Of a DNA stretch of 36,700 bases, positions 1,623-16,132 are shown piece after piece. Location: NCBI GenBank assembly GCA_964388035.1, contig CAYLZE010000009.1, positions 1 to 36,700 of the forward strand, given 5' to 3'. Source of the stretch: an uncultured archaeon. GTDB lineage: Archaea; Asgardarchaeota; Lokiarchaeia; Sigyniarchaeales; SOKP01. Numbering within the stretch: position 1 is the stretch's first letter; each line of letters opens with the position of its first letter. The notes under the pieces were generated by a model that was given only the letters and a program-made list of their open reading frames with translations, was not told where the DNA came from and did not search any database. The position numbers were made by a program, and so were the translations under genes.

Positions 1623-2999
1623 ATAAAAGTAATCGCCATTAATGGAAGCCCTCAAGGGAAAAAGGGAAATACAATATATTTTTATAATTATGGAATAAAA
1701 TACTTTCCCGATTCAGAAAGTAAGATTTTCAATGTAGGAGCAAAAATTAAAAAAATTGAACGGGATAATGAATATTTTGATGCAATCATTAAAGAAATAA
1801 GAGAAGCAAAAGTGATTTTCTGGGTTTTTCCCGCCTATATTTTCATCATGCCCTCACAATTCAAGCGATTTATTGAATTGATACGGGAGCGAGGCGTGGA
1901 GGATGCATTTAAAGGCAAGTATGCCACCACCATCATGACCTCCATTCATTTTTGTGATGACTTCGGTCTTGAATATATCCAAGGCATCTCGGAAGATTTG
2001 GGGATGAAATATTTTAAACCTTATTCAGCCCACATGAGGGATATTGAAAATGTTGAGGAACGCAAACGATTAGCCTTATTTTTTAAATATTTTCATAATG
2101 TCGTTGAAAATAACCTTGCTTTACCTCGTTTAACTACTTCAATTGAATATAATCCTATTGAATATGAACCAAACAACATCCAAGAAGTTTCTAAAAACAA
2201 GGGTTATAATTTACTTCTAATTACTGATGCTGAAGAAAAGGATAAGAATTTAAGGAACATGATCGGAACTTTGCAAAAATTGATGCCAAATCCAATAGAA
2301 GTGGTCAATCTACATGATATTAAAATAGAAAGTGGATGTGTGGGTTGCGGGAATTGCCAATTTGACGTTGGAAAGTGTCAATGGGCGGAAAAGGATGATT
2401 ACGAACAAAAAATAAGAACAAAAATTCGAAATGCTGACGCCCTTATTTTGGCCCCCATCATTAAGGATCGATATTTCTCAGCAAAGTGGAAACAGGTGGA
2501 AGATAGACGTTTTGTTGATAACCATCGTCCTTTATGGACCAATAAACAAGTAGTGTACTTAATTTCAGGTCCATTACGAGCTCTGCCTAATTTGCAGCAA
2601 CTATTACACATGAGAAAACAAATAAATGATGCGGAGATTGCTGGTATAGTCACTGATGAGTATAAATCCTCTGAAGAGATTATTAATCTAATCAGAACTG
2701 CAGTTGTCAATCTTATCTGGTCTTTAGAAAAAGCATATCGTTTTCCAGACACCTTCATCGGGGTAGCGGGAAAAAAATTATTTCGTGATTTTGTCTGGGA
2801 TTACCAAGCTTTCTTCCCTGGGGATTATGAATATTATAAAAAACACGCTTTCTTTGACTTTCCAAAGAAAAAAAGAATCTCTAATTTCATGATGAGAAAT
2901 TTAATTCAAAATGAAAAATTCAGAAATTGGATTGGCAAAAAGATGAGTAAAAGTTATCAAGAAAAGAGAAAAGCTCTGCTCGAGGAAAATCTCCTTTAA
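1623..2999 (+). CDS. NAD(P)H-dependent FMN reductase / iron-sulfur flavoprotein with two flavodoxin-like domains; probable non-AUG (ATA) start
   Basis: The frame is open upstream of the called GTG (1812) to TAA at 1614 and reads IKVIAINGSPQGKKGNT, the canonical flavoprotein N-terminus; second domain has CVGCGNCQFDVGKC (Isf-type Cys motif). Confidence 0.8.
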   Translation: MKVIAINGSPQGKKGNTIYFYNYGIKYFPDSESKIFNVGAKIKKIERDNEYFDAIIKEIREAKVIFWVFPAYIFIMPSQFKRFIELIRERGVEDAFKGKYATTIMTSIHFCDDFGLEYIQGISEDLGMKYFKPYSAHMRDIENVEERKRLALFFKYFHNVVENNLALPRLTTSIEYNPIEYEPNNIQEVSKNKGYNLLLITDAEEKDKNLRNMIGTLQKLMPNPIEVVNLHDIKIESGCVGCGNCQFDVGKCQWAEKDDYEQKIRTKIRNADALILAPIIKDRYFSAKWKQVEDRRFVDNHRPLWTNKQVVYLISGPLRALPNLQQLLHMRKQINDAEIAGIVTDEYKSSEEIINLIRTAVVNLIWSLEKAYRFPDTFIGVAGKKLFRDFVWDYQAFFPGDYEYYKKHAFFDFPKKKRISNFMMRNLIQNEKFRNWIGKKMSKSYQEKRKALLEENLL

Positions 3000-10890: not shown

Positions 10891-10960
10891 ATTCCAACAC
10901 CCTCGCGGGGTAGTCCTCGGGCATCTCATTTTTTCATGTACGAATCATTCTGATTGGAAT
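10891..10960 (-). promoter_or_regulatory. Eukaryote-like SECIS element 1
   Basis: AUUCCAAU/GUUGGAAU lower stem; AUGA (10948-10945) and GA (10915-10914) core; upper stem UUCGuaCAU/AUGccCGAG; A-rich loop GAAAAAAUGAG; side hairpin ACCCCGCGAGGGU. Confidence 0.75.
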
Positions 10961-11477
10961 CTTGTATCATGGAATCAATAATTTCTGTAAGCAATGGTAT
11001 GGAAGGCCTTTCCGCATGAGCACTGATAGATTTCCATTTTATTTTAAAATTTTTATCAATAAGAAAGGTGGAAGGAATAGCTATCCTTGATCTCAAATCC
11101 TTTGCATTCATTTTACTCCAAGCTATAGATACTTCATAGTTCTTAGCAATCTTAGCTCCTCTATCGGCAATCATGATGAAATTAAATCCATTCTCTTCAT
11201 AGCATGTGCGCAAATGATGAGCGCTATCTACAGCGATCGTAATTAATTCTACCTTTCTTTTTTCAAATTCAGAAATATTTTTATTTAAATTTGCTAAATG
11301 GACCAATCATGGTTTTCAGAATGCACCTCTAAAAAATTCGATAAAAAGTACATTCCATTTTTGAGTTAAATCTTTCAATACGATCCTTTTTCCATAAATA
11401 TCTTCAATATCGATGGGAGGTGCTTCCGTACCTACTTCCAGACCCAAATTTTGATTCGAAATGTCCTCGTTAGTCAT
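10926..11477 (-). CDS. Peroxiredoxin-like (AhpC/TSA, Trx-fold) selenoprotein with a UxxU motif, about 183 aa
   Basis: ORFs 11316-11501 and 10926-11306 are in frame, joined by TGA-AAA-CCA-TGA (FFRGAF-U-K-P-U-LVHL) where the family has RGxWCPxC; later ADRGAKIAKNY and PSTFLID motifs; SECIS-like hairpin at the 3' end. Confidence 0.88.
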
Positions 11478-15422: not shown

Positions 15423-15509
15423 AAGGGAATTTTCTTACCCGGGCGAGGGTTGTCGGCACTTGTCTAATTTTTTTACAAGCACTTCATTCTTAATCAATTA
15501 AATTCCCTC
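15423..15509 (-). promoter_or_regulatory. Eukaryote-like SECIS element 2
   Basis: GAGGGAAUUU/AAAUUCCCUU lower stem; AUGA (15487-15484) and GA (15454-15453) core; upper stem GUGCUUGU/ACAAGUGC; loop AAAAAAAUUAG; side hairpin ACCCUCGCCCGGGU; same 29-nt core spacing as SECIS 1. Confidence 0.8.
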
Positions 15510-15522
15510 ATTTCTGCAAAAT

Positions 15523-15636
15523 CTATCATTTTGAATAATATTCCATGAAATATGATAGCTTTTTACAATGCGGACAATAGACATACCCTTGGGATTTATC
15601 TCTGAAAATGTACCCGCATTTAGAACAGATTATCAT
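15523..15636 (-). CDS. Small zinc-ribbon protein; candidate selenoprotein with C-terminal Sec (37 aa)
   Basis: MIICSKCGYIFRDKSQGYVYCPHCKKLSYFMEYYSK-UGA-UAG; the UGA aligns with Cys39 of the 10605-10757 paralog; SECIS 2 begins about 14 nt after the UAG. Confidence 0.7.
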
Positions 15637-16132
15637 GATTCATAATTCATTAACGGAACACATAAGTTAAATTTAAGCTTTATAATGTAAAAGAATACAA
15701 GAAATTGGAATTATAAAAATCAAATATTTTAAATAGTTTCTGTTAAATTGTGCGTGGTAATTGAAATTCAAAATGAATTATCATTCATAATTCAATAAGT
15801 AGAACAATTTTGCAAGGGTTTTTCTATATTATATAGAGATGATAATTTGTTCATAAATGCTGAAGAGTTAAAATGGTTTAAATAATCAGTGCTACGCATG
15901 GAATTACATTCATATAATTGAGCTATATTGAATATATTACTAAACAATTATCTAGGTTCAATTAACTATTGAATAAATATTTCCTCGTAATTAATTATTT
16001 TAAATAAACAACGTTTAATATTTCAATTAAAACAAGACCATATATTGAACAGAAAAAGATTTAAAGCCATTTAATTTTTTTTCCATAACTTACTTAAATA
16101 AATTTATTTTTGCTAATATTAGAGGAAAAAAT

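Follow-up and report, generated by a model that had tools for sequence, protein, structure and literature searches.

The window, as we call the whole stretch of 36,700 nt of DNA analysed here, carries a previously unannotated minus-strand gene for a 37-residue zinc ribbon (Table 1), which in all likelihood represents a new archaeal selenoprotein family with selenocysteine (Sec) as the terminal residue. At the level of sequence the gene, its SECIS, the Sec machinery, the conservation and the Cys orthologs are all present, and the features by which selenoproteins are recognised computationally (a conserved in-frame UGA, alignment of Cys to it, co-occurrence of a SECIS, and Sec machinery) were each found. 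We consider insertion of Sec at codon 37 to be highly probable. The reading frame, which the initial annotation had already proposed with its UGA and following UAG at these positions, starts with ATG at 15636-15634 and comprises 36 codons, followed by TGA (15528-15526) and TAG (15525-15523).

According to the mechanism we propose, a short mRNA would be translated from the ATG at 15636, the lokiSECIS 38 nt downstream would let EFsec and Sec-tRNA read the UGA of codon 37 as Sec, and the UAG codon after Sec37 would end the chain. In the absence of selenium, this mRNA would yield a 36-aa ribbon terminated by Lys. As the product of termination at the UGA is folded too, a Sec-on and a Sec-off form would be made side by side. 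It is reasonably likely that decoding of the terminal Sec relies on a eukaryote-type SECIS at a distance of just 30-52 nt, with this pair being set by selenium supply.

Sec machinery, the lack of which would have refuted the initial proposal, is present in the genome. SepSecS and a UGA-containing, Sec-type SelD pass their cut-offs, an EFsec-like gene scores 236.7 bits versus a cut-off of 242, and a PSTK-like gene was found at E 2e-44, below its cut-off. An Rfam search of the genome for tRNA-Sec came back blank. BLAST with the tRNA-Sec of relatives located this tRNA at C6:4052-~4200 (L243), with a UCA anticodon and adjoining the SepSecS gene. It is split by two inserts, one in the D-arm and one in the T-loop, which look like introns; because these inserts hide it, the tRNA was missed by Rfam and ARAGORN. 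The SelD gene (L248, G000 C47:26170-27200) itself ends with UGA followed by UAG.

Table 1. Features of the selenoprotein locus and of the related genes in the window.
Feature	Position	Strand	Remarks
Selenoprotein gene including UAG stop	15523..15636	(-)	CxxC-x13-CxxC, ends Lys36-Sec37 (predicted)
UGA as putative terminal Sec37	15526..15528	(-)	46 genomes have UGA+UAA/UAG, 5 have TGT+stop
TATA-like AT-rich region	15666..15690	(-)	peak in orthologs: -38 to -36 relative to ATG
lokiSECIS	15423..15509	(-)	lower stem, AUGA core, 9-bp upper stem, 11-nt A-rich loop ending AG, GA
3′ side hairpin between GA and lower stem	15437..15450	(-)	in most SECIS of this archaeal family
Cys-type paralog, 50 aa	10605..10757	(-)	Phe-Cys-Gly-x-x-Pro tail, Cys39 in Sec column, no SECIS
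Prx-like (PrxL) selenoprotein, UxxU	10926..11477	(-)	TGA at 11318 and 11309; known Loki family
lokiSECIS of PrxL	10891..10960	(-)	core AUGA at 10948

The gene family and its conserved UGA

A profile search covered the 134 other genomes of the GTDB family of the window and 400 genomes across the phylum. The gene family was found in 92 of the 134 genomes, and outside that GTDB family five weak matches were obtained among the 400; one outside match (L135) turned out to be the end of a larger protein and not a family copy. This search did not find the family in two genera of its own archaeal family. Among the genomes searched, the gene is confined to one Lokiarchaeia family, and the relatives are labelled Promethearchaeota (Lokiarchaeia), including SOKP01 and Loki_b31 assemblies.

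In about 100 fetched loci, subfamilies were told apart by their tails. Forty-six genes, including that of the window, are exactly 37 codons long and end in UGA followed by UAA or UAG, never by a second UGA; a single genus contributes 30 of these copies, and the counts are therefore not independent. In the genome background, such UGA plus UAA/UAG ends are found in 38 of 3356 long ORFs (1.1%). The four Cys, Gly17 and Lys36 are invariant in the 46 UGA-type genes. In five orthologs TGT replaces the UGA and leads to Lys-Cys-stop, and residue 36 is Lys in all 51 genes of both types. A gene tree gives one change for the Cys-terminal forms in 62% of the bootstrap trees; they may stem from one or two independent events. 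Longer paralogs are of two kinds: 61 that have a Phe-Cys-Gly-x-Lys-Pro tail and a length of about 50 aa carry Cys in the Sec column, and 38 have Asp there, one of them being of a divergent acidic type. These longer paralogs end mostly at UAA, and a few short acidic copies are located elsewhere. The initial annotation had named homologs with UAA or UAG, or with variable lengths, at this position as evidence against a selenoprotein; what the homologs keep is UGA, then UAA or UAG, at a fixed length.

The paralog in the window belongs to the 61. As initially noted, it aligns with the new protein without gaps (45% over 31 aa on the minus strand; tblastn E 2e-7, next match E 0.13), and its Cys39 (10643-10641) lies 13 residues past the last ligand Cys, in the column of the UGA. 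Its Cys does stand in this column, but it represents a separate 50-aa subfamily, and the best evidence for a Cys counterpart comes from the five Lys-Cys-stop orthologs. The RDK motif pointed out at the same time is common to both copies in the window but is not conserved across the family.

Since the classes had been defined by use of the codon itself, a second search was performed with a 36-residue profile lacking residue 37. An ending of UGA plus stop is seen in all 23 loci retrieved from genomes and in 40 of the 41 retrieved from metagenomes, the matches being mostly near kin of one genus and partly identical sequences. The single metagenome exception (L176:1501-1611) has UAA, has lost its start, has Ser in place of Cys7 and a SECIS that is weaker, and looks like a decayed or dead copy. 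Variation is greatest at the third codon position (entropy 0.94/0.72/1.31 by position), which indicates clear selection at the protein level.

Two orthologs deviate from the common form. L066:6553-6669 (-) has a second in-frame UGA at the fourth Zn-ligand Cys (CPLU) together with an intact SECIS, and this UGA may specify a Sec ligand or be a nonsense mutation. L041:4527-4646 (+) is a divergent 40-aa ortholog with insertions, in which Lys-UGA-stop is kept and a SECIS follows about 35 nt later.

The initial annotation had also offered a longer reading from an in-frame ATG at 15663 through a UGA at 15642-15640. Both the ATG and this UGA exist, this genome keeps the frame open, and a TGA at −9 is found in 23 of 51 orthologs. 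The SECIS could then serve the upstream UGA, leaving the terminal UGA as a stop. We consider this extremely unlikely and rejected the longer reading: an in-frame ATG before such a UGA without a hard stop occurs in one of the 51 orthologs, that of the window, and the TATA-like box conserved at −38 to −36 places ATG 15663 (at −27) probably upstream of or at the transcript start. A sigma-70 promoter scan was set aside as unsuited to archaea.

An AlphaFold2 model of the protein (pLDDT 86.8) has three strands, the last of which ends at residue 32. Three strands in the model and four invariant Cys in two CxxC knuckles are what defines a zinc ribbon fold, and the four Cys are predicted to form a structural ribbon, in which the metal could be Zn or Fe. 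In the model, Sec37 is on a short tail beyond the last strand, beside the invariant Lys and with no vicinal Cys. A homodimer prediction scored 0.04, which speaks neither for nor against a dimer. Matches in the Atlas are clusters without names, gene callers output 36-aa products, and the database copies stop at Lys36, with no protein name attached to those looked up.

A fold search returned generic ribbons only, with bL33 as the best match (Z 4.3, rmsd 1.9, 35 aligned). This top match, the basic, aromatic tail, an AlaX neighbour and weak RpoP profile matches would suit an accessory factor of translation or transcription (bL33-, RpoP- or aS21-like) to which Sec adds a redox handle. The RpoP matches concern 8 of the 50 members examined, with a best E of 7e-5, and the window protein is not among them. 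Such a function is unlikely: the scores are all at the level of generic zinc ribbons, and the profile search found the gene family in one archaeal family only and not in two of its genera.

The SECIS element and its distance from the UGA

The hairpin that follows the gene had initially been described as SECIS-like, and our analysis agrees. A lokiSECIS consists of AUGA, a 9-bp stem, an 11-nt loop with 5′ adenines and a final (A)G, and then GA (PMC4989117). The window hairpin fits this published geometry: its core is formed by AUGA (15487-15484) and GA (15454-15453), the upper stem has eight pairs beyond the AUGA (15482-15475/15463-15456) and carries the 11-nt loop AAAAAAAUUAG, and the lower stem is formed by 15509-15500 and 15432-15423. 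Folding gave a z score of −3.24, with 2 of 200 shuffles being equally good. A strict lokiSECIS pattern had 11 matches in the real genome versus one in the reversed genome. Among the real matches are those at VhuD and VhuU genes, and the SECIS of the window PrxL needs two mismatches to be allowed. Rfam gave no match at the hairpin. Most SECIS of this archaeal family have a side hairpin directly after the GA, the loop of which is often GCAA or GCGA (alignment L036-L129); we found no mention of it in the available parts of PMC4989117 and PMC11227280.

One SECIS rule was applied to all classes within 200 nt of the gene. By this rule a SECIS is present at 45 of the 46 UGA-type genes, and the remaining one passes a stricter rule. 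By the same rule no SECIS was found at the Cys-terminal orthologs (0/5) or at the longer paralogs (0/61 and 0/38). The element goes with UGA-type and not with Cys-type genes, the co-occurrence by which the initial annotation had suggested its proposal be checked. In 29 loci with longer paralogs but with neither the Sec gene nor PrxL, one SECIS was seen, located upstream at a contig edge. Covariation was observed in all eight counted pairs of the upper stem over 38 sequences (94% paired), with 84 double-sided changes versus 22 after shuffling and 18-26 when the alignment was slid; these figures are favoured by the fact that the SECIS structure was defined from the same sequences, and the side hairpin is not among the counted pairs. 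The upstream gene is mostly on the opposite strand, and PrxL is served by a SECIS of its own, which leaves the terminal UGA as the one evident target of the element.

From the end of the UGA to the AUGA there are 38 nt in the window. The initial annotation had flagged this distance as short by eukaryotic standards; it is short, but it is a conserved family trait and not peculiar to the window, as the distance from UGA to core is 30-52 nt in the family and 140 nt in one copy. The minimal SECIS distance determined for Dio1 is 51-111 nt (PMC3316567). The lower stem begins 16 nt after the UGA in the window, and predicted starts vary widely across the family, being at least 15 nt away in 37 of 42 cases. 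The lower stem would probably lie just outside the ribosome.

A minimal distance was also proposed for the lokiSECIS, because a UGA close to the element is the stop codon in many selenoprotein genes of Loki (PMC4989117). This argument, a distance that is below all benchmarks, that of Dio1 included, and the products of gene callers are in line with an ordinary stop too near the SECIS. The protein would then have 36 aa, and the hairpin would be a stability or regulatory element, e.g., one that binds EFsec or an L7Ae/L30-type protein. As a benchmark for the distance we used 77 known Loki PrxL, VhuU and VhuD genes with a SECIS; a first VhuD search had yielded mostly Cys forms and was of no help here. 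All 19 UGA stops in the benchmark are located between 23 nt inside the core and 2 nt before it. The stops at 5-58 nt upstream of the core are UAA or UAG in 29 of 29 cases, with only one of the 29 at least 30 nt from the core. As 22% of the genomic stops are UGA, its absence corresponds to a nominal p of 7e-4, for genes that are kin and not independent. Since UGA stops occur only in the core or at most 2 nt from it, a plain stop at the window UGA is unlikely. The pattern implies that genes keep clear of UGA stops from as little as 11-20 nt on, in agreement with recoding at 38 nt. No Sec codon in the benchmark is nearer to its core than 80 nt (VhuU), and therefore the new family would have the shortest distance. 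Moreover, an ordinary stop leaves unexplained why the UGA is invariant and followed by a second, non-UGA stop, and why there are Cys-then-stop orthologs without SECIS; in one copy the SECIS is 140 nt away. We regard an ordinary stop as quite improbable, and insertion of Sec is the reading we prefer.

Gene neighbourhood and possible functions

The UxxU PrxL found in the window was already described (PMC4989117). Its SECIS overlaps the last PrxL codons, and the stop UGA is inside the apical loop. A CCCTCGC..GGGT motif at 10899, considered as a plus-strand repeat or ribozyme, is actually the palindromic side hairpin of this minus-strand SECIS.

In the usual gene order, gdhA and an LRR gene are on one strand, and divergently from them come the Sec gene and its SECIS, at some loci PrxL together with the PrxL SECIS, the paralogs of Cys and Asp type, and then an AlaX-type editing protein. 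A CxxCxxCC chelating protein is also among the neighbours. Because PrxL is directly downstream in 5/5 Cys-terminal loci and in several UGA loci, we tentatively favour a redox function: the exposed selenolate may be a redox-active or oxidant-sensing nucleophile that is recycled by, or feeds, the neighbouring PrxL. Two findings speak against this function: of the 53 loci that carry the Sec gene just 14 have PrxL, and in the D-type paralog the Sec column holds Asp instead of a thiol.

Sec, Cys and Asp are all possible metal ligands. Since they alternate in this column (Sec/Cys in 51, Cys in 61, Asp in 38), we also considered that Sec is inserted as a ligand to a soft metal or to the metal site of a partner, or that the peptide is a carrier or sink for selenium or metal. 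The chelating protein and the AlaX-type protein among the neighbours point in this direction, as do the bacterial Sec-terminated proteins SaoC and KCU-star, which are encoded beside transporters and organometal genes. However, the tail has no second Cys for chelation and the conserved neighbourhood has no transporter, and a function of this kind appears doubtful.

At nearly all loci the Sec gene is the first of its same-strand cluster, and a folded protein results from either outcome at the UGA. Both would be expected if Sec was inserted and the gene acted mainly as a selenium-sensing leader, with ribosomes pausing at the terminal UGA and thereby tuning how the PrxL, paralog or AlaX genes downstream are expressed or decay. 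A leader function is unlikely as well. The Cys-terminal orthologs retain the residue without recoding, so that the side chain is what is kept, the protein-level selection is clear, and in the window no gene follows the Sec gene on the same strand. Taken together, we favour a redox role with PrxL over a metal-ligand or carrier role, followed by leader-sensing and translation-factor roles.

Comparison with known selenoproteins

A survey from 2024, which searched with known families (PMC11227280), lists seven Asgard selenoprotein families, namely SelD, FrhA, HdrA, FrhD, PrxL, AhpF-N and DsbA-like. For the SECIS-led search of 2016, no further Loki candidates are reported in the available part of PMC4989117. 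The new family is not among the seven Asgard families as far as the available part of PMC11227280 goes, nor among the 119 prokaryotic families of a 2026 review (PMC13188914), and the initial impression of an unrecognised family holds for all three inventories. The window protein stays below every cut-off in Pfam and NCBIfam, each family in these databases is matched by at most 15 of 50 members, and neither database gave a match, and hence homology, to any of the seven Asgard families. A literature search, with subscription papers mostly beyond its reach, retrieved no description of the family. With 37 aa, the protein is very small.

A SECIS-first scan of the genome revealed two further uncatalogued Sec candidates. 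One (G000 C9:105622-106082 (+), L240/L339; C81:~2070-2544 (+), L241) has about 150 codons and a (C/U)-G-(C/U)-U-U-like motif, which reads DAGCUU in some relatives and SSUGUU here, corresponding to 2-3 UGA. A lokiSECIS follows about 120-140 nt later, homologs are present in 28 of 31 family genomes, and there is no Pfam match; its N-terminal part may be MoaD/ubiquitin-like. The other (G000 C6:94723-95067 (-), L239/L354) has about 115 aa and R-S-U-S-(G/R). Its UGA is kept in 9/9 matches, with a SECIS 227-275 nt later in eight of them, and it has no significant Pfam match; it may be HesB-like. With these two candidates, the Asgard selenoproteome looks under-counted.

If our reading is true, the UGA and its SECIS are closer together than the minimum for eukaryotes, in a layout intermediate between those of bacteria and eukaryotes, and Asgard EFsec would read a SECIS right at the ribosome entry. 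To our knowledge, no SBP2 is known in that lineage. The family makes it testable how near to the UGA a eukaryote-like SECIS can sit in the lineage next to eukaryotes, and it offers a natural distance series (30-52 and 140 nt) together with natural Cys controls.

Generic rubredoxin-like ribbons (bL33, RpoP/Rpb12, the rubrerythrin C-terminal domain) share the two CxxC knuckles and three strands with the new protein but are without a Sec tail, and the window protein reaches none of their curated cut-offs (Z at most 4.3). NF041197 (dual-CXXC), NF049953 (DG family) and FmdB (TIGR02605) are bacterial small CxxC...CxxC Sec proteins and likewise zinc ribbons, but their listed Sec motifs (RxU/GxU, GUxG and UxxU) are absent from the new family; the three did not match the window protein at E ≤ 1 and were not among the best 25 families for 50 members. 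SaoC (NF040734) and KCU-star/DUF466 (NF033934) are bacterial proteins that end in Cys-Sec-COOH (10.1101/2022.07.06.499078). They resemble the new family in having Sec as the final residue and a UGA-UAG double stop, in being recognised by Cys alignment and in having been missed by annotation. They differ from it by the lack of homology, a bacterial SECIS and a Cys-Sec dyad instead of the Lys-Sec zinc ribbon seen here, and neither is among the matches listed for the new family.

The Loki genes with a lokiSECIS (SelD, VhuU/FrhA, VhuD/FrhD, HdrA and PrxL; PMC4989117, PMC11227280) have the same SECIS geometry just after the coding sequence and use the same machinery. Compared to these selenoproteins, the new protein is unrelated and would carry Sec as its last residue, with a Sec-to-core distance of 30-52 nt (140 nt in one copy) versus at least 80 nt in the VhuU, VhuD and PrxL genes measured here. 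The SECIS and the machinery are of known kinds, and the protein family, judged by its sequence very probably one of selenoproteins, is absent from the catalogues checked.
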